From positions 8,866,001-8,930,000 of the forward strand of contig OX597824.1 of assembly GCA_951406725.2 (NCBI GenBank): a stretch of 64,000 nt of DNA, given 5' to 3'. The notes below the pieces were generated by a model that saw only the letters and a program-made list of their open reading frames with translations, was not told the DNA's origin and did not search any database. The translations under genes and the position numbers were made by a program. Shown in pieces: positions 5,165-45,056 of this stretch. This DNA is from Octopus vulgaris (taxonomy: Eukaryota). Position 1 is the stretch's first letter, and the number at the start of each line of letters is the position of its first letter.

Positions 5165-5978
5165 ATACTTCGAAAAATGTATAAGCGTCGAAACTATTTG
5201 CAATCATCTAGAAACGGATGTGGTATTTGCTACGCAAAACACAATCTACGAAATTTTAAAGAAACGGTCCCACTGTGATTTTTCAGTTGAAGCCCAAACA
5301 ATTAACTTATGTTTCTAATGCCTTGAAGGAAACAGAAACGTTACAAACAATTTCATTTGTTTTTTGTTTTTTTCACTGCTGAAAAAGAAAGAAGGAAAGA
5401 AAGCCGAGCCTTGCGCATATATAAAATATCTATGTTTTTTGGAAGAATTTTTACCTTTTATTTTATTAAGACATGAAAAGAGAAGAAAAGCAATATTTTT
5501 TCGGGGCAGTTATCATATATTAAATTTCAAATTGAAATAAAATATTTAGCCTAAAAAAATAATATGAAGAATTCTTATGAAAATATTTTGATTCAACAAA
5601 TTGAAGAATGTTCCATAATGCACGTAATAGAAAAAAATTAATTCAATCTCTTAATCTCTCACGAATATAAAGAAACATACGCCATTATGCATATCACTTT
5701 ACGCCAGATATTTAATTGTAAAAAGGTTCCATTCAATTTACTTTGTTGTTTTTTTCGCTATTGTTTCTTTTTTTCCATTATAGGTCTGAATTTCCATAAA
5801 AATAAATTCGCTAATATATCTACACCTACATACAACTCTACATACGTTTGTTTGCCTCTTTCAATATATCGTGTGTCTTGAGAATATTTGCACTCCGTCC
5901 AAAATATCTATTTATTTATCTGCTTTGCTGAGGTGGACACACTTGAATTTATATCTTCTCTTTTGCAATATGTCTGGA

Positions 5979-6180
<202 letters not shown>

Positions 6181-6286
6181 AGTGTATATTGCATGTATTG
6201 CTTGTGTGTGTTTTGTAGTACTGGATGATGTAATTCCATATATTCTTACTTATGAATATATCTGTGTTTGTGTTTGTGTATGTGTG

Positions 6287-6335
<49 letters not shown>

Positions 6336-6900
6336 ATGTGTGTGAGTAGTGTGAGTGTATGTGTAGCGTGAGTGTATGTGTGTTGTGTGTGTGTGCGTAG
6401 CGTGAGTGTATGTGTGTTGTGTGTTGTGTGTGTGTGTGTGTGTGTGTGTGCACATGTAGCCCTGGTTTTAATTCTAAGTTATATTTTGAAATCGAACGAT
6501 GCGGTCTAGGAAACAATTAGACCGAACAGTATCCTTGTATTTGCAAATATTTATCATCATACACAAACACATATAAACACACCCATATACACATAAATGC
6601 ACACATATATATATACTTAAATATGCGTACATATACACATATAGGAACTGACATACATAGATACATACAAATACACATGTCCTCAAGTTGATTTCGAGCG
6701 TGACCGGTTACCCGATGTAGACATCTATTTGCATAAGACCTGCCAGTGTTTCTACGACGAACCCTCAAGTGAGTACCTAGCCTTGACTTTGCTTAAATTT
6801 TGTTGCGATAAACGTACCACTTAACTCTGTGTAGTTCCATCCCGAAGCATTACTCCAGAGTTAATTTGAACAGAAGATGAATACATCTTTATAAGTAAAG

Positions 6901-7086
6901 TGGTGGTGAACCCTGCTGTACTCTTTCAAACAAAACGTTCTCTCACTCTTTCTTCCTGTTTTTCTTGAACCTGTATTTCAAAGGAGCCAGACTTGTCACA
7001 CCCTGTGTCACGGTGAATCACCCCGAGAACTACGTTAAGGGTACACGAGTCTGTGGAGTGCTCACCCGCTTGCACGTTAATTTCAC
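6901..7086 (+). mobile_element. SINE family A internal fragment
   Basis: ccctgctgtactctttc...ccccgagaactacgttaagggtacacg...cacgttaatttcac matches the reverse complement of 1886-2253. Confidence 0.8.
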
Positions 7087-7103
7087 ATAAAGTTTTTTCT
7101 AAG

Positions 7104-7148
<45 letters not shown>

Positions 7149-7230
7149 ACATAATCTTTTGTGGTGAATGACGATTTGACGTCTATATCTAGCATGTTGA
7201 CTGTCCACTTTTCGTGTTCAGTCCTTAATT

Positions 7231-7291
<61 letters not shown>

Positions 7292-7399
7292 AAGTTTATA
7301 TACATATATATATGAAGGTCGTGAGTTCAATTTCCGGCGATGCGTTGTGTCCTTTAGTAAGACACTTTATTTCATGTTGTGCCTGTACTTCAACTGACC

Positions 7400-7601
7400 G
7401 GCCTTGTATATTTTCTCTTTCTCTCTTCTCTTTTCTATTATCAATTCTCTATTTTCGCTCCCATTTTATTTCTGTGCCCCTTTCTGTTGAAGAGCCTAGG
7501 CTCGAAACGTAAACGACTTACATTTCCGAGCGTTAAACTAATACATCTATTTGTTGCTTATACCCCCGTCTTCGTCGTTTTTTTTTGTTGTAAATTTTCC
7601 C
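7400..7601 (+). mobile_element. Family D repeat with minimal hammerhead-like motif
   Basis: cttt-CTGTTGA-a-gagc-ctag-gctc-GAAA-CGT-A-aacg at 7480-7515; downstream ccgagcgttaaactaatacatct shared with the 2720-2912 copy. Confidence 0.6.
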
Positions 7602-7620
7602 TGTATATATATATATAATT

Positions 7621-8154
7621 CTTTCTGCAAAGTGCCTTGTTTGCTATGTTAATTAAATCCTGTAATAAGGGTACACACGTTTAGCTTTTTAATTAATCGC
7701 TGGTATTTATTTAAGTTTCAAAGTCGTTCAATGCTAACTGATTTGATAGATTATATGAAGATGAGGTACGTTGCTTAATCCTCGCTGATTTAGTTTAATT
7801 AGACATGAAGAGAAACCGTGTATGGGTGTAATACATATCTACTATGGATTGCCACAAATGTGGGAAGGAAAGATATATATATATATATACATATATCGAT
7901 CCCAGCACTTATTCTTTGTAAGCCAAGTACTTATTCTATCGGTCTCTGTTGCCGAACCGCTACGTTACGGGGACGTAAACACAACACCATCGGTTGTCAA
8001 GCGATGTTGTTGGGACAAACACAGACACATAAACACACACTCACACAACGGGCTTCTTTCAGTTTCCGTCTACCAAATCCACCCGAGGCTAAAGTAGAAG
8101 ACACTTGCCCAAGGTGCCAGTAAGCAAGCTACTTACCACATAGCTACTCCTACG

Positions 8155-17729: not shown

Positions 17730-18567
17730 TGTACTTACTTGTTTTTCTAAAATACACCATAAATGTTCAATAAATTTGAGATCTTCGGACTGTGGTGGTC
17801 AGATAAGATGTTCAACTTCACTAGAGAGATCTTCGTGCCATTCAGTAACAACTTTAGCTGTGTAAATCGGTGCATTATCATCCTGAAGAATTGCGTTTCC
17901 CTCCGGAAACAGTTCTGCAACCAAAGGATGAATTTGATCAGATAGAATGCGTAAATAGTCTTGACTATTAATCCTGCCATGAAGGGAAACCATTGGCTGG
18001 GGGATTTCCATGATATAGTCTCCCAGATCATCACAGATCCTCCTCCATGTTTAACACTTGGAAGACAGCAGTTTGGGTCAAATGCTTCTTTTGGCTGTCT
18101 CCACACGTATGACTCGTCTGAGAAAATAACATTCTTCCATTGCTCAAGGGACCAATTCTTTAGGTTTTTACCCCATTCAAAACGCTTTGCAACCTTTGTT
18201 TCTGAAAGTAGTGGTTTTTTGATTGCAGCCCTCCCGTGAAATCCGGTTTTATGCAAGCTCCCGATGAACAGTTTTGTGGAAACTGGGTTCCCGAGGTGCT
18301 AATTAAGTTCTGTAATAATTTTGGGAGTTGTACTTCTATGATCCTATCAAACAATTCGCGTAAGAGTCCGACGGTCCCTATCTGAAAGATGTGGTTTTTT
18401 TGAGAGATTTGTTTCAACGAGGTTTTCCTCTCTTTCCCAAAGGCTGTCATTACTTTCGAGACAGTACTTCTTGACAAACCAAACATTTCGACTATTTTCG
18501 TTACACTAGCACCTGCCATACAAGCACGAACAATTTGACCTCTTTGAAAGTCCGATAGATCTGTCAT
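17730..18567 (-). pseudogene. Tc1-like (DD34E) transposase pseudogene, frameshifted
   Basis: HTH N-terminus MTDLSDFQRGQIV...GLSRSTVSKV (18160-18567); KKPLLS...WKNVIFSDES...PSVKHGGGSVMIW (17747-18256); LQDDNAPIYTA (17799-18011); then a ..FIEHLWCILEKQV remnant. Confidence 0.9.
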
Positions 18568-18756
18568 TTTAAAGAATTTTAATTATCTTTTTCTGATGAT
18601 ATCGGAAAAGAAATAGCTATTCTAGCAAAACCTTTTAAGCAACACTAATAATAAATCGAAAAACATAAAAATATACAAGCATTTGACGGTTTTATAGATA
18701 TTTCAAAATTATGATGCTATGATGCTAGGTGTTTCCGTCATTTTGTGCAACCCCTG
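17730..18756 (-). mobile_element. Tc1-family DNA transposon, 3'-truncated
   Basis: One TIR-like end (minus strand TA|CAGGGGTTGCACAAAATGACGGAAACACC, TA at 18757-18758). Transposase remnants lie in three frames; the second TIR was not found. Confidence 0.85.
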
Positions 18757-21589: not shown

Positions 21590-21806
21590 ATAGGCTGACC
21601 TGGTAACTTTTATTATTCCAGATTGAAGGAGAGAGCTGTAACAACACTTTCAAGACACCTTATTAAACACTGCTTGTCACAGCTGTCTAGTTTCCAGAAT
21701 ATAATCGGAACGTGGAGACAGTTTGGGAGCCCGCTATGCATTAACGCTTTGTGTTAAACAGAGTAACAACTTGCAAAGAAATATATGAAATGTTCCAGAA
21801 TGCTTA

Positions 21807-22160
21807 TTGATTAAGCTGTATGTGCCGAGTGTATGTTTTTCGCTTGCACAAGCGGCGAGGCAAAGCAGGGCAATGAGGAAAATTATCATGAGACCCTTTT
21901 CTGATAGCAAGAGCGTCATCTACATCCACTGGATTCGCTCTGGCAGCAAAGTGCCCTTCGTGAAGATTTTATGGGAGATACGGAAGAGATTTCATCGCAG
22001 AAGTCCAGAACACTTACACCAGGACAATGCACCGATCTATAATTCCATCCTAGCACCATCTAACTACGTGCCAAAGATGGACATCAAAACTGTCCTTCAG
22101 CTAATTTGTAATCCAGACCTTACACTCTGTGAATTTTGGTTGTTACCCGAGCTGATGTAG
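21807..22160 (+). pseudogene. Mariner transposase C-terminal remnant
   Basis: LHQDNAP...ICNPDLTLCEFWLLPEL corresponds to the mariner LHHDNAPAH...YSPDLAPCDFWLFPKL motifs. Confidence 0.75.
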
Positions 22161-28493: not shown

Positions 28494-29178
28494 GGTCTTG
28501 TGTAGGTCTTTACCCCAATGAGGCCAAGACTGAATATATAAACAAGTGCCTGTCCAACAGTGATTGCATCATCCATACTCTCAACAATGCGCCCTTAAAT
28601 ATGGTTTCTGATTACAAATATCTTGGGTCATACATATCATCATCTGGAAAAGATTTTCTAACTAGAAAGGGTATGGCCTGGTCAGCCTGTAATGACATAC
28701 ATAAGATCTGGTCATCAAATCTAACTAGAGACTTCAAACTTGAAATCTTCAAAGCCACAGTCGAACCAATTCTACTATAAGGCTCAAAAACCTGGACGTT
28801 ATCAAAGAAGCTTGAGAGGCGGTTGGATGGAACCTACACTCGCCTCCTTATGAGAGCTCAAAATCTCTCGTGGAAGCGCCATCCAACAAAAATGCAAATA
28901 TATGGGAAACTACCACCTGTGTCATCTCTTGTGAAAGGTAGGAGAGTCCAGTTTGCTGGACATTGTTGTAGAGCTGAAAAAGAGGTAATTTCTACTTTTC
29001 TCCTCTGGAAGCCATCTACTCGCAATACCAGAGGGCGCACACTCTCCTACCTTGATGTAATCTCCAGGGATACAGGTATCCAGCAACAGGATCTCCGTAA
29101 TGTCATGATGGACCATGAAGTCTGGCGTAGCATTGTAAATTCCATTGTCTCGACAACGGTCGAACAATAATGATGATG
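28494..29178 (+). mobile_element. 5'-truncated RTE-clade LINE with 12-bp TSD
   Basis: TSD ATTCTTGCAGAA at 28482-28493 and 29179-29190; (TGA)n tail directly after the stop codon. Confidence 0.9.
28496..29170 (+). pseudogene. RTE-clade reverse transcriptase C-terminal portion, one in-frame stop
   Basis: Single frame SCVGLYPNEAKTEY...VSDYKYLGSYI...RKGMAWSA...IFKATVEPILL*GSKTWTL...LDGTYTRLLMRA...RRVQFAGHC; stop TAA at 28778-28780. Confidence 0.88.
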
Positions 29179-29205: not shown

Positions 29206-29692
29206 AAGGCGGCGAGCTGGCAGAATGCTTAGCGGTATTTCGTCTGTGTTTACGTTCTGAGTTCAAATTCTGCCGAGCTCGACTTTGCCTTTCAATCTTT
29301 CGGGGTCGATAAATTAAGGACCAGTTACGTACTGGAGTAGATGTAATCGACATAATCCGTTTGTCTGTCCTTGTTTGTCCTCTCTGTGTTTAGCCCCTTG
29401 TGGGTAATAAAGAAATAGGTATTTCATCTGTGTTTACGTTCTGAGTTCAAATTCTGCCGAGCTCGACTTTGCCTTTCATTCTTTCGGGGTCTATAAATTA
29501 AGTACCAGTTACGCACTGGGGTCGATGTAATCGACTTAATCCGTTTGTCTGTCCTTGTTTGTCCTCTCTGTGTTTAGCCCCTTGTGGGTAGTAAAGAAAT
29601 AGGCACTTCGTCCATCATAGTTTTGAGTTCAAATTCCATCGAGATCGACTTTCTCTTCTATTCTTTCGGCGTCGATAAAATAAGCACCAGTT
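29206..29692 (+). mobile_element. SINE family C with internal 184-bp tandem repetition (~2.5 units)
   Basis: Units start at 29234, 29418 and 29602. Confidence 0.85.
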
Positions 29693-35271: not shown

Positions 35272-35318
<47 letters not shown>

Positions 35319-35322
<4 letters not shown>

Positions 35323-35510
35323 TTAATTAATAAGGGTGAGAGAATTAGATACTAATTTAATAGTATATTTATTCCACACCAAGTGGCCTAGTGCTACGAG
35401 AAACCTGGATTATTATAATATTTTATAACATATTATAATATTTTCACAAAATAAATATAAGAGAGTGTTCACTATATTGATCACTCTAGCACCAGTTAAT
35501 CCAAGAGGTT
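35319..35510 (-). repeat. Inverted partial copy of the 535-bp unit
   Basis: Reverse complement of 35900-36091; no differences seen by eye. Confidence 0.95.
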
Positions 35511-35720
35511 ACTATTAAATTAGTATCTAATTCTCTCACCCTTATTAATTAATTATAATTATGCTGCATTTATTTCTAAATGCTGTATTTGTTTTTCCGT
35601 GAGAGTTTGGCGCGCTGTTGGTTGGGGCATTTGAATTATAACGTCCGATGTAATCAATTGAACCGCACGCGTAATTATCGTTATGGTAAAATCTGGCGTG
35701 TGATTGAGTGGATTTCATCA

Positions 35721-35812
35721 AGATAGCCTTGGCTGAAGAGCTACAAATGGATTACTGTAAGTAATATTACATTTAATTCATTAATAGCGAAACAATTGTC
35801 CCAAGATAATCT
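35721..35812 (+). ncRNA. Type I hammerhead ribozyme, copy 1
   Basis: Stem I cttgg (35728-32)/ccaag (35801-05), extended by agat/atct across an internal loop. Core CTGAAGA 35733-39; stem II gcta/tagc with a long hairpin; GAAA 35789-92; palindromic stem III ACAATTGT; GUC cleavage after 35800. Confidence 0.88.
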
Positions 35813-36255
35813 GTATTTTTGTTATTTTTTATTTGCCCTGTCCGTGTGAACTAACAGTCGTACCGGCTTTCATGGGAAACATATATTTTTCGTGGTTGAA
35901 ACCTCTTGGATTAACTGGTGCTAGAGTGATCAATATAGTGAACACTCTCTTATATTTATTTTGTGAAAATATTATAATATGTTATAAAATATTATAATAA
36001 TCCAGGTTTCTCGTAGCACTAGGCCACTTGGTGTGGAATAAATATACTATTAAATTAGTATCTAATTCTCTCACCCTTATTAATTAATTATAATTATGCT
36101 GCATTTATTTCTAAATGCTGTATTTGTTTTTCCGTGAGAGTTTGGCGCGCTGTTGGTTGGGGCATTTGAATTATAACGTCCGATGTAATCAATTGAACCG
36201 CACGCGTAATTATCGTTATGGTAAAATCTGGCGTGTGATTGAGTGGATTTCATCA

Positions 36256-36347
36256 AGATAGCCTTGGCTGAAGAGCTACAAATGGATTACTGTAAGTAAT
36301 ATTACATTTAATTCATTAATAGCGAAACAATTGTCCCAAGATAATCT
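36256..36347 (+). ncRNA. Type I hammerhead ribozyme, copy 2
   Basis: Same as copy 1; cleavage after 36335. Confidence 0.88.
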
Positions 36348-36790
36348 GTATTTTTGTTATTTTTTATTTGCCCTGTCCGTGTGAACTAACAGTCGTACCG
36401 GCTTTCATGGGAAACATATATTTTTCGTGGTTGAAACCTCTTGGATTAACTGGTGCTAGAGTGATCAATATAGTGAACACTCTCTTATATTTATTTTGTG
36501 AAAATATTATAATATGTTATAAAATATTATAATAATCCAGGTTTCTCGTAGCACTAGGCCACTTGGTGTGGAATAAATATACTATTAAATTAGTATCTAA
36601 TTCTCTCACCCTTATTAATTAATTATAATTATGCTGCATTTATTTCTAAATGCTGTATTTGTTTTTCCGTGAGAGTTTGGCGCGCTGTTGGTTGGGGCAT
36701 TTGAATTATAACGTCCGATGTAATCAATTGAACCGCACGCGTAATTATCGTTATGGTAAAATCTGGCGTGTGATTGAGTGGATTTCATCA

Positions 36791-36882
36791 AGATAGCCTT
36801 GGCTGAAGAGCTACAAATGGATTACTGTAAGTAATATTACATTTAATTCATTAATAGCGAAACAATTGTCCCAAGATAATCT
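36791..36882 (+). ncRNA. Type I hammerhead ribozyme, copy 3
   Basis: Same as copy 1; cleavage after 36870. Confidence 0.88.
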
Positions 36883-37325
36883 GTATTTTTGTTATTTTTT
36901 ATTTGCCCTGTCCGTGTGAACTAACAGTCGTACCGGCTTTCATGGGAAACATATATTTTTCGTGGTTGAAACCTCTTGGATTAACTGGTGCTAGAGTGAT
37001 CAATATAGTGAACACTCTCTTATATTTATTTTGTGAAAATATTATAATATGTTATAAAATATTATAATAATCCAGGTTTCTCGTAGCACTAGGCCACTTG
37101 GTGTGGAATAAATATACTATTAAATTAGTATCTAATTCTCTCACCCTTATTAATTAATTATAATTATGCTGCATTTATTTCTAAATGCTGTATTTGTTTT
37201 TCCGTGAGAGTTTGGCGCGCTGTTGGTTGGGGCATTTGAATTATAACGTCCGATGTAATCAATTGAACCGCACGCGTAATTATCGTTATGGTAAAATCTG
37301 GCGTGTGATTGAGTGGATTTCATCA

Positions 37326-37417
37326 AGATAGCCTTGGCTGAAGAGCTACAAATGGATTACTGTAAGTAATATTACATTTAATTCATTAATAGCGAAACAA
37401 TTGTCCCAAGATAATCT
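37326..37417 (+). ncRNA. Type I hammerhead ribozyme, copy 4
   Basis: Same as copy 1; cleavage after 37405. Confidence 0.88.
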
Positions 37418-37860
37418 GTATTTTTGTTATTTTTTATTTGCCCTGTCCGTGTGAACTAACAGTCGTACCGGCTTTCATGGGAAACATATATTTTTCGTGG
37501 TTGAAACCTCTTGGATTAACTGGTGCTAGAGTGATCAATATAGTGAACACTCTCTTATATTTATTTTGTGAAAATATTATAATATGTTATAAAATATTAT
37601 AATAATCCAGGTTTCTCGTAGCACTAGGCCACTTGGTGTGGAATAAATATACTATTAAATTAGTATCTAATTCTCTCACCCTTATTAATTAATTATAATT
37701 ATGCTGCATTTATTTCTAAATGCTGTATTTGTTTTTCCGTGAGAGTTTGGCGCGCTGTTGGTTGGGGCATTTGAATTATAACGTCCGATGTAATCAATTG
37801 AACCGCACGCGTAATTATCGTTATGGTAAAATCTGGCGTGTGATTGAGTGGATTTCATCA

Positions 37861-37952
37861 AGATAGCCTTGGCTGAAGAGCTACAAATGGATTACTGTAA
37901 GTAATATTACATTTAATTCATTAATAGCGAAACAATTGTCCCAAGATAATCT
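37861..37952 (+). ncRNA. Type I hammerhead ribozyme, copy 5
   Basis: Same as copy 1; cleavage after 37940. Confidence 0.88.
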
Positions 37953-38395
37953 GTATTTTTGTTATTTTTTATTTGCCCTGTCCGTGTGAACTAACAGTCG
38001 TACCGGCTTTCATGGGAAACATATATTTTTCGTGGTTGAAACCTCTTGGATTAACTGGTGCTAGAGTGATCAATATAGTGAACACTCTCTTATATTTATT
38101 TTGTGAAAATATTATAATATGTTATAAAATATTATAATAATCCAGGTTTCTCGTAGCACTAGGCCACTTGGTGTGGAATAAATATACTATTAAATTAGTA
38201 TCTAATTCTCTCACCCTTATTAATTAATTATAATTATGCTGCATTTATTTCTAAATGCTGTATTTGTTTTTCCGTGAGAGTTTGGCGCGCTGTTGGTTGG
38301 GGCATTTGAATTATAACGTCCGATGTAATCAATTGAACCGCACGCGTAATTATCGTTATGGTAAAATCTGGCGTGTGATTGAGTGGATTTCATCA

Positions 38396-38487
38396 AGATA
38401 GCCTTGGCTGAAGAGCTACAAATGGATTACTGTAAGTAATATTACATTTAATTCATTAATAGCGAAACAATTGTCCCAAGATAATCT
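38396..38487 (+). ncRNA. Type I hammerhead ribozyme, copy 6
   Basis: Same as copy 1; cleavage after 38475. Confidence 0.88.
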
Positions 38488-38930
38488 GTATTTTTGTTAT
38501 TTTTTATTTGCCCTGTCCGTGTGAACTAACAGTCGTACCGGCTTTCATGGGAAACATATATTTTTCGTGGTTGAAACCTCTTGGATTAACTGGTGCTAGA
38601 GTGATCAATATAGTGAACACTCTCTTATATTTATTTTGTGAAAATATTATAATATGTTATAAAATATTATAATAATCCAGGTTTCTCGTAGCACTAGGCC
38701 ACTTGGTGTGGAATAAATATACTATTAAATTAGTATCTAATTCTCTCACCCTTATTAATTAATTATAATTATGCTGCATTTATTTCTAAATGCTGTATTT
38801 GTTTTTCCGTGAGAGTTTGGCGCGCTGTTGGTTGGGGCATTTGAATTATAACGTCCGATGTAATCAATTGAACCGCACGCGTAATTATCGTTATGGTAAA
38901 ATCTGGCGTGTGATTGAGTGGATTTCATCA

Positions 38931-39022
38931 AGATAGCCTTGGCTGAAGAGCTACAAATGGATTACTGTAAGTAATATTACATTTAATTCATTAATAGCGA
39001 AACAATTGTCCCAAGATAATCT
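38931..39022 (+). ncRNA. Type I hammerhead ribozyme, copy 7
   Basis: Same as copy 1; cleavage after 39010. Confidence 0.88.
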
Positions 39023-39465
39023 GTATTTTTGTTATTTTTTATTTGCCCTGTCCGTGTGAACTAACAGTCGTACCGGCTTTCATGGGAAACATATATTTTT
39101 CGTGGTTGAAACCTCTTGGATTAACTGGTGCTAGAGTGATCAATATAGTGAACACTCTCTTATATTTATTTTGTGAAAATATTATAATATGTTATAAAAT
39201 ATTATAATAATCCAGGTTTCTCGTAGCACTAGGCCACTTGGTGTGGAATAAATATACTATTAAATTAGTATCTAATTCTCTCACCCTTATTAATTAATTA
39301 TAATTATGCTGCATTTATTTCTAAATGCTGTATTTGTTTTTCCGTGAGAGTTTGGCGCGCTGTTGGTTGGGGCATTTGAATTATAACGTCCGATGTAATC
39401 AATTGAACCGCACGCGTAATTATCGTTATGGTAAAATCTGGCGTGTGATTGAGTGGATTTCATCA

Positions 39466-39557
39466 AGATAGCCTTGGCTGAAGAGCTACAAATGGATTAC
39501 TGTAAGTAATATTACATTTAATTCATTAATAGCGAAACAATTGTCCCAAGATAATCT
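39466..39557 (+). ncRNA. Type I hammerhead ribozyme, copy 8
   Basis: Same as copy 1; cleavage after 39545. Confidence 0.88.
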
Positions 39558-40000
39558 GTATTTTTGTTATTTTTTATTTGCCCTGTCCGTGTGAACTAAC
39601 AGTCGTACCGGCTTTCATGGGAAACATATATTTTTCGTGGTTGAAACCTCTTGGATTAACTGGTGCTAGAGTGATCAATATAGTGAACACTCTCTTATAT
39701 TTATTTTGTGAAAATATTATAATATGTTATAAAATATTATAATAATCCAGGTTTCTCGTAGCACTAGGCCACTTGGTGTGGAATAAATATACTATTAAAT
39801 TAGTATCTAATTCTCTCACCCTTATTAATTAATTATAATTATGCTGCATTTATTTCTAAATGCTGTATTTGTTTTTCCGTGAGAGTTTGGCGCGCTGTTG
39901 GTTGGGGCATTTGAATTATAACGTCCGATGTAATCAATTGAACCGCACGCGTAATTATCGTTATGGTAAAATCTGGCGTGTGATTGAGTGGATTTCATCA

Positions 40001-40092
40001 AGATAGCCTTGGCTGAAGAGCTACAAATGGATTACTGTAAGTAATATTACATTTAATTCATTAATAGCGAAACAATTGTCCCAAGATAATCT
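40001..40092 (+). ncRNA. Type I hammerhead ribozyme, copy 9
   Basis: Same as copy 1; cleavage after 40080. Confidence 0.88.
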
Positions 40093-40535
40093 GTATTTTT
40101 GTTATTTTTTATTTGCCCTGTCCGTGTGAACTAACAGTCGTACCGGCTTTCATGGGAAACATATATTTTTCGTGGTTGAAACCTCTTGGATTAACTGGTG
40201 CTAGAGTGATCAATATAGTGAACACTCTCTTATATTTATTTTGTGAAAATATTATAATATGTTATAAAATATTATAATAATCCAGGTTTCTCGTAGCACT
40301 AGGCCACTTGGTGTGGAATAAATATACTATTAAATTAGTATCTAATTCTCTCACCCTTATTAATTAATTATAATTATGCTGCATTTATTTCTAAATGCTG
40401 TATTTGTTTTTCCGTGAGAGTTTGGCGCGCTGTTGGTTGGGGCATTTGAATTATAACGTCCGATGTAATCAATTGAACCGCACGCGTAATTATCGTTATG
40501 GTAAAATCTGGCGTGTGATTGAGTGGATTTCATCA

Positions 40536-40627
40536 AGATAGCCTTGGCTGAAGAGCTACAAATGGATTACTGTAAGTAATATTACATTTAATTCATTAAT
40601 AGCGAAACAATTGTCCCAAGATAATCT
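40536..40627 (+). ncRNA. Type I hammerhead ribozyme, copy 10
   Basis: Same as copy 1; cleavage after 40615. Confidence 0.88.
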
Positions 40628-40859
40628 GTATTTTTGTTATTTTTTATTTGCCCTGTCCGTGTGAACTAACAGTCGTACCGGCTTTCATGGGAAACATATA
40701 TTTTTCGTGGTTGAAACCTCTTGGATTAACTGGTGCTAGAGTGATCAATATAGTGAACACTCTCTTATATTTATTATATTATATATATATATATATATAT
40801 ACATACAAACATACATGTACACACACACACACACAGACACACGCACACATATATTCTGT

Positions 40860-44264: not shown

Positions 44265-45056
44265 AGCATCTACACGCCGACATTTTGCGACATTTAATCC
44301 GTCTTTTTAGCCCCTTGTGGGCAGTAAAGAAATAGGTATTTCGTCTGCCGCTATGTTCTGAGTTCAAATTCCGCCGAGGTCGACTTTGCCTTTCATCCTT
44401 TTCGGGTCGATAGATTAAGTACCAGTTAAGCACTGGGTTCGATATAATCGACTTAATCCATTTGTCTGTCCTTGTTTGTTCTCTCTGTGTTTAGCCCCTT
44501 GTGGGTAGTAAAGAAATAGGTATTTCGTCTGCCGCTATGTTCTGAGTTCAAATTCCGCCGAGGTCGACTTTGCCTTTCATCCTTTCGGGTCGATAGATTA
44601 AGTACCAGTTAAGCACTGGGTTCGATATAATCGACTTAATCCATTTGTCTGTCCTTGTTTGTTCTCTCTGTGTTTAGCCCCTTGTGGGTAGTAAAGAAAT
44701 AGGTATTTCGTCTGCCGCTATGTTCTGAGTTCAAATTCCGCCGAGGTCGACTTTGCCTTTCATCCTTTCGGGTCGATAGATTAAGTACCAGTTAAGCACT
44801 GGGTTCGATATAATCGACTTAATCCATTTGTCTGTCCTTGTTTGTTCTCTCTGTGTTTAGCCCCTTGTGGGTAGTTAAAAAATAGGTATTTCGTCTGTCG
44901 CTACGTTCTGAGTTCAAATTCCGCCGAGGTCGACTTTGCCTTTCATTCTTTCAAGGTTGATAAATCATGTACCAGTTGCGTACTGGAGTTGATCTAATCG
45001 ACACCCCCCCCGCTCCCCCAAAATTTCAGGCTTTGTGCCTAGAGTAGAAGAGAATA
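44265..45056 (+). mobile_element. SINE family C tandem array (three full 183-184-bp units plus flanking partials)
   Basis: Units start at 44335, 44519, 44702 and 44885; the last unit ends in an alternative tail (ccccaaaatttcaggctttgtgcctagagtagaag). Confidence 0.9.

Follow-up and report, generated by a model that had tools for sequence, protein, structure and literature searches.

Two-armed insertions of a 535-bp hammerhead repeat family in Octopus vulgaris, a probable Penelope-mobilised retrozyme

The stretch of Octopus vulgaris DNA analysed here (assembly GCA_951406725.2, contig OX597824.1, positions 8,866,001 to 8,930,000 of the forward strand; 64,000 nt, hereafter the window) carries a tandem array of 535-bp units, each with a type I hammerhead ribozyme motif. 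We are confident that the element is a non-autonomous retrozyme of the non-long-terminal-repeat (non-LTR) kind, mobilised by a Penelope-like element (PLE). The array is one copy of a young, dispersed, non-coding family, whose young insertions mostly consist of two divergent arms ending at two fixed unit positions. This filing, raised in a first-pass annotation of the DNA, is supported by the end rule, the (TA)n target and the conserved hammerhead. Regarding the mechanism, we favour, with less assurance, reverse transcription of a 535-nt RNA circle over several rounds, carried out by a PLE enzyme that primes on each of the two strands of the target. The retrozyme class and the rolling-circle hypothesis are already published.

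The array and its hammerhead

Identity at period 535 is perfect over 35510-40775 (5,266 nt, 9.84 units, zero mismatches), which confirms the roughly ten-copy array without differences described in the first-pass annotation. What had been overlooked there is a second, inverted arm to the left of the array: the 192 nt at 35319-35510 match part of the unit in reverse complement at 100% identity, and the whole element including this arm is 35319-40775. Both outer ends run into (TA)n and, as regards a target-site duplication, both flanks are (TA)n. The unit (numbered from u1 = 35801) has a guanine plus cytosine (GC) content of 33% and, as noted before, no meaningful open reading frame, the longest methionine-started frame being 57 aa; a tRNA gene was looked for in it and none was found. 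TRF passed over the array because it reports periods of no more than 500.

Ten hammerhead motifs lie on the + strand, with predicted cuts after 35800+535n, and a descriptor scan found none on the - strand within the element, so that the claim of one type I hammerhead per unit on the + strand only stands. In the first copy, stem I is CUUGG/CCAAG, the core strands are CUGAAGA (35733-35739) and GAAA (35789-35792), and stem II (35740-35788, 49 nt) has a 4-bp base beneath a long hairpin. The stem III palindrome (35792-35799) forms 2 bp closed by AAUU, and the cut is predicted after C35800 in GUC (35798-35800). The hammerhead fold (-18.0 kcal/mol) costs 1.3 kcal/mol relative to the minimum (-19.3 kcal/mol). 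Checking against hammerhead models gave a divided result. The unit matches a strict type I descriptor (5-bp stem I, CUGANGA, 4-bp stem II, GAAA, stem III, NUH), which none of 5,000 dinucleotide shuffles of the unit does (1/5,000 for a loose descriptor), while Rfam returned no hammerhead family at the gathering score, nor among the 8 matches up to E 10, probably because stem II is 49 nt long.

The hammerhead is conserved in the family, and we read it as being under selection on the basis of stem covariation and the kept core. A sister family (~70% identity) keeps the core and has UUCUA/UAGAA in place of CUUGG/CCAAG in stem I. Over 37 distinct stem ends, a set that includes hammerheads of Hydra-clade PLEs, a few unrelated hammerheads and four off-register sister rows, 84% of stem I and 91% of stem II cells are paired, as against 30-54% and 15-53% in slid controls. 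Core position 7, a free position of the hammerhead, is A, C, G or U among the copies. The 535-nt monomer is predicted to fold as a circle at -147.6 kcal/mol, with 68% of it paired (z -7.1 against 60 shuffles). Cleavage as dimers, as had been suggested, is possible through the palindrome ACAAUUGU, but it may be unneeded, since a 2-bp stem III with a tetraloop is the invertebrate type and a cloned mussel repeat cleaves co-transcriptionally (PMC7229834). In vitro self-cleavage was reported for only one of nine predicted retrozyme elements in 10.64898/2026.07.22.740005.

Searched against the 2.8-Gb genome, the unit had 280 matches on many contigs, drawn from 40 of 733 candidates and 98-100% identical among the matches listed. 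Two exact motifs had 2,401 and 2,403 matches genome-wide, with 0 for the reversed controls. Further non-coding hammerhead or tandem families were noticed as well: L157 holds a third relative of the unit, L165 has a 594-bp tandem with an inverted arm (5370-7656), and an element in L194 (oriented 2230-2800) weakly resembles the tail of the sister family (z 3.4). One 6.5-kb contig (G000:C120, L024) is entirely array, with 11.9 units and a rearranged piece.

Two-armed insertions and their variants

Our young set comprised the window and 37 fetched loci, chosen by identity to the full unit and mapped; L029, the same insertion as L030, was dropped, which leaves 37 loci. Among other rows, L109 (same as L108) was left out, and L024 was excluded from the inner ends, its contig being all array. 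Two arms were found in 27/37 young loci, a minus arm followed by a plus arm, their 5' ends meeting centrally with 0-4 nt overlap or short filler; the other ten have one arm. The outer ends of 24 of these 27 loci fall one at u157-164 (site A) and one, on the opposite arm, at u286-292 (site B), the sites being 131 nt apart. The irregular two-arm loci are L021, L025 and L031, and none of the 27 uses A+A or B+B. In a position-ordered list (C1), 16 of the clusters listed comprise 8 divergent A+B, 7 single and 1 other, and 24 sister-family loci comprise 12, 9 and 3; no divergent locus in these two samples uses one site twice. Four further loci are all A+B. It is important to note that the young tally was taken from arm mapping with a k-mer map, because an end caller working on motifs placed false ends in flanks, so that two loci (L031 and L050) came out as 'A+A'; by the k-mer map, L050 is single-armed and the B end of L031 is degraded.

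The divergent A+B arms are the inverted-copy-plus-tail signature of PLEs. Hallmarks of PLEs are a 5'-truncated copy in inverted orientation and, at one end, a tail of 30-40 bp (PMC8557442). The inverted 5'-truncated copy (in the same 27 loci), two alternative 3' ends and the (TA)n target are all present in our family; the tail is 131 nt and not 30-40 bp. The one-each use of A and B suggests that the two reverse-transcription starts are coupled. In PMC11167929, the start site is described as equal between strands, with no difference seen.

Units are more alike within an insertion than between insertions. In 148 full units from 34 loci, the mean number of substitutions is 0.29 within arms, 0.50 between the arms of a locus and 2.88 between loci. 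The modal haplotype is the same in both arms at 11/12 loci (permutation mean 1.9, maximum 9 in 100,000). Among variants private to one sampled locus, 11 are fixed in every informative unit (7 of them spanning both arms), 30 occur in one unit and 3 in a subset of units; nine older arrays have 24 singleton and 2 subset-shared changes. Genome-wide, T88C is confined to one locus (10/10 matches), as is G320A (5/5 matches), and both span both arms. The window's marker base occurs in 21 units at six loci, four of which are short two-arm insertions, two without other substitutions; these siblings are near-identical, with arms from 0.13 to 9.84 units. An A>G bias, as a sign of editing, was not seen among the fixed variants. 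An insertion thus carries one haplotype, usually the same in both arms, which suggests that it derives from one monomer.

The 63 inner arm ends are spread uniformly over the unit (Kolmogorov-Smirnov p 0.61); not one lies within 10 nt of the predicted cut, and at 209 unit junctions spanning that cut the surrounding sequence is unchanged. This makes a cleaved linear monomer an unlikely template, and we rejected it: the inner ends neither pile at nor avoid the predicted cut region. Post hoc, we noticed that 0/63 inner ends fall between u497 and u10, where ~6 are expected. That the multimer is the integrated product of rolling-circle reverse transcription, as first proposed, gains indirect support from the outer ends, the one-haplotype arms, the locus-confined variants and the cut-independent inner ends.

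Features of the element in the window (u, unit position)
Feature	Position	Strand	Remarks
(TA)n target, left flank	35272..35318	.	
Short inverted arm	35319..35510	-	192 nt, u100-u291; outer end site B; without hammerhead
Central junction	35510..35510	.	meeting point of both arms' 5' ends, which overlap by 1 nt
Long arm	35510..40775	+	9.84 identical 535-bp units, u245 to outer end site A (u160)
Type I hammerhead, first of ten	35728..35805	+	
Predicted 535-nt monomer	35801..36335	+	between two cuts; putative circle; fold computed
Site A, u157-164	35957..35964	+	fixed outer end; putative reverse-transcription start
'Tail' between sites A and B	35962..36092	+	131 nt
Site B, u286-292	36086..36092	+	second fixed outer end
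(TA)n target, right flank	40776..40805	.	

Four sequencing runs of guessed or unrecorded kind were aligned as contigs to one unit. Their contigs cover the unit and some bridge the wrap-around; since tandem DNA gives such contigs as well as a circle does, they were used neither way. On 35511-36045, run X12 (organism B, guessed kind) shows 15 A>G places on the + strand in a few low-depth contigs, which could be adenosine-to-inosine editing of a double-stranded transcript or alleles. On the same unit, run X1 carries mostly the young haplotype and X15 mostly older subfamilies; the samples differ and we draw no conclusion.

Candidate helpers and known systems

The genome holds young elements with reverse transcriptase (RT) and GIY-YIG. 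One young PLE family (P0001) has a 781-aa frame with a CxxxxCxxC linker and is of the Neptune/Nematis type by the description in PMC8557442. It and a second family (P0002) each have two alternative ends in (TA)n, spaced by 37-38 and 33 nt, and L093 and L095 consist of a forward copy with the tail and an inverted copy without it. Autonomous PLEs here follow the same end grammar as the 535-bp family. The loci of the 781-aa PLE (L088-L103) also have an overlapping upstream 479-aa frame of no known family and, read by eye, a degenerate hammerhead-like core (UUGAUAA...GAAAC) in the terminal repeat.

A relaxed hammerhead pattern led to L163 and many long frames. The element at L207 has a 980-aa frame with RWK, DKT, CxCx5C, CxxC and CxH motifs and a C-terminal endonuclease; by motifs it has the features of the Hydra clade, including a canonical hammerhead and a (TA)n target (PMC8557442). 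A Pfam search of L207 returned no family, and the Atlas groups its RT half with HTH_animal/RVT_1 clusters. Hydra-clade PLEs (L163, L193-L207) are numerous, with open frames up to 1,091 aa, and their tails here are ~90-125 nt, near the 131 nt of our family and far above the 30-40 bp given for PLEs (PMC8557442). They share with our unit the hammerhead layout (5-bp stem I, long stem II, GAAAC-tetraloop-GUH, often AAUU), the (TA)n target and an inverted copy with the other end site. In contrast to the 535-bp unit, they code for RT and endonuclease, and their first end lies 34-46 nt past the cut, not 160. By eye, site B of the sister family and the near end of the Hydra elements appear to have a motif in common. 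The window itself holds a second type I hammerhead (1818-1730, in 1690-1900 of the - strand) of the Hydra layout (long stem II, GAAAC-ACGU-GUA); its element ends 38 nt later in (TA)n, adjoining a SINE-like (short interspersed nuclear element) repeat, and is probably the 3' end of a truncated Hydra-type PLE.

A genome-wide search for copies beside an RT and GIY-YIG frame had been proposed. The copies are indeed dispersed, but tblastn matches to PLE proteins at retrozyme loci sit in the flanks, never inside elements, no RT and GIY-YIG frame was found inside the 535-bp element, and no matching terminal repeat turned up; candidate scoring covered 150/6,136 and 140/11,494 candidates. A Hydra-clade PLE is the likeliest helper, at slightly better than even odds in our judgement, and a helper of the Neptune/Nematis type is an appreciably less likely choice.

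Regarding known systems, tandem units with a complete type I hammerhead, absence of coding capacity, GC below 50% and dispersed copies place the family among non-LTR retrozymes. In animals (PMC7229834; 10.64898/2026.07.22.740005), their units are likewise tandem, non-coding and low in GC and carry a single type I hammerhead, the copies are dispersed and the monomer is self-paired; co-occurring PLEs have been proposed as their helpers and circle-templated multimeric cDNA (complementary DNA) as their route. Circles were shown for coral, mussel and axolotl retrozymes, and a primed circle giving tandem cDNA was proposed, with PLEs as likely helpers (PMC7229834); retrozyme repeats bear no motif pointing to a helper (PMC7761336). 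Xenopus retrozymes have been linked to PLE terminal repeats and their arrays ascribed to local amplification (10.64898/2026.07.22.740005). Our family differs in its two divergent arms, the A+B end rule and the (TA)n target, and in a stem II of 49 nt. The unit, which the first-pass annotation called long, does exceed the ~170-400 nt circles tested in PMC7229834 but fits the 51-972 bp range of non-LTR retrozymes in 10.64898/2026.07.22.740005. The word 'inverted' is absent from the main text of PMC7229834 and occurs in 10.64898/2026.07.22.740005 only in a reference title.

Endonuclease-positive PLEs (PMC8557442, PMC11167929) likewise show a 5' copy in inverted orientation, a choice of two 3' ends, internal priming, a (TA)n target and a hammerhead lying upstream of the ends. 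Unlike them, the 535-bp family has no open reading frame, whole-unit multimers in both arms, a tail of 131 nt instead of 30-40, and, among the loci examined, no homology to a PLE terminal repeat that we could detect. Multicopy head-to-tail insertions also occur in non-autonomous PLEs of the Chlamys group, for example MRC1, but most Chlamys elements are without a canonical hammerhead, their 3' end is like that of the autonomous partner, and they belong to green algae, not animals (PMC8557442). In the texts consulted, we found no account of this family, of two-armed retrozyme insertions, of the A+B rule, of founder variants or of long Hydra tails; the supplements (Fig. S9 of PMC7229834, File S1 of PMC8557442) may bear on it. 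The two-arm A+B form may be the general form of retrozyme insertions, never mapped as such.

Mechanism and rival explanations

According to the mechanism we favour, a read-through transcript would be cut by its hammerheads into 535-nt monomers, which would be ligated to circles. A PLE protein acting in trans, probably as a dimer, would bind one RNA and nick both (TA)n strands, one cDNA being primed at site A and one at site B. Each cDNA would run a random length, because a circular template has no end (in the window 0.36 and 9.84 rounds), and the two would be joined centrally by end joining with 0-4 nt overlap or short filler. A purified PLE protein does nick and extend both strands, and on its RNA it starts from two internal sites between which the tail lies (PMC11167929). 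Possibly, though we would not give it even odds, one dimeric Hydra-clade PLE protein uses each of the two sites of a viroid-sized, ribozyme-processed circle once, one per target strand, and writes both multimeric arms in one event. If this is true, an insertion is a clonal record of one RNA, and every jump passes through a single-monomer bottleneck.

Several points weigh against this mechanism. Hammerhead cleavage was unnecessary in vitro, where unprocessed RNA was the dominant template (PMC11167929). The lengths of the two arms are uncorrelated (Spearman -0.23, p 0.28, n 24), so the two cDNAs were not made in lockstep on one circle, and choosing the young set by full-unit identity favours long arms. 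Two of four tested 'private' variants, C350T (6+2 matches) and A174G (5+6), also occur elsewhere; the assembly shows one haplotype, and a homogeneous parent array may thus be unseen. Some loci are mixed: L025 is mosaic for A489G (6/15 units), L034 has C381G in two adjacent units and L030 has T343C in 4/6 units. As to the helper, no autonomous PLE with a terminal repeat matching the unit was found in 50 GIY-YIG and 15 Hydra-type loci. Neither the unit tail compared with five Hydra tails (z -0.7 to 0.2) nor the stem II interior compared with Hydra elements (p 0.085-0.89) shows significant similarity; the Hydra link is therefore one of layout and tail length, and a Hydra-clade helper is a candidate only.

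The first alternative keeps PLE two-site priming but takes as template a linear multimer that was not cleaved, the transcript of a homogeneous parent array, with the hammerhead a passenger or acting later. Such a template explains the A+B ends, the scar-free junctions and the inner ends that ignore the cut just as a circle does, and it fits both the haplotypes common to many loci (6, 6 and 3 of 34) and the window's marker base at six loci. It offers, however, no route by which a new variant becomes fixed in all units of both arms, and 21 modal haplotypes occur among 34 loci, with two variants confined to one locus. Moreover, daughters of a linear multimer would never be longer than their parents, yet arms reach 12.7 units. 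The circle explains the ends, the fixed variants and the cut-independent inner ends, whereas the linear multimer explains the ends and not the fixation of new variants; we consider it unlikely, though to be taken seriously.

Expansion in place of a short PLE-type insertion by unequal crossover or slippage, homogenised by gene conversion, has been proposed for retrozyme arrays (10.64898/2026.07.22.740005). A few variants in adjacent units (L034, L025, L173) and the many copies below one unit are what it would give. Subset-shared variants are nevertheless rare (3 vs 30 single-unit variants; 2 vs 24 in older arrays), both arms of one locus are often multimeric, and the window has 9.84 units without change, which makes this reading improbable. 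That the number of identical units in the window was inflated or homogenised by assembly, as the all-array contig of L024, noisy units at some loci and one insertion present twice (L029/L030) might suggest, is very improbable given that dozens of loci have unique flanks, differ in length and carry fixed variants of their own, which cross-mapped polishing would erase and not create.

Elsewhere in the window, a 183-184 bp SINE-like tandem unit with a tRNA B-box-like motif occurs at 29234-29692 and 44306-45002 (2.5 and 3.8 copies), and a Tc1-type transposase remnant at 17747-18582 (-), with Pfam HTH_Tnp_Tc3_2 below the cut-off. We take 21789-22160 (+) to be a mariner-like and 28781-29170 (+) a LINE-like (long interspersed nuclear element) transposon remnant; Pfam gave no match for either.

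How retrozymes re-enter the genome, which enzyme moves them and why PLEs leave an inverted copy and tail are open questions in PMC7229834, PMC8557442 and PMC11167929. The family gives predictions at the level of single bases, namely two named priming sites, an exclusive one-each rule and a defined 535-nt template. Its target, (TA)n, is defined as well, and its own genome encodes intact candidate enzymes, so that circle and linear priming become assayable and the standing rolling-circle hypothesis is turned into specific tests. If the circle-templated mechanism is true, the writing of multimers into both strands of (TA)n by an enzyme copying an RNA circle would also be a new route to the birth of satellites.

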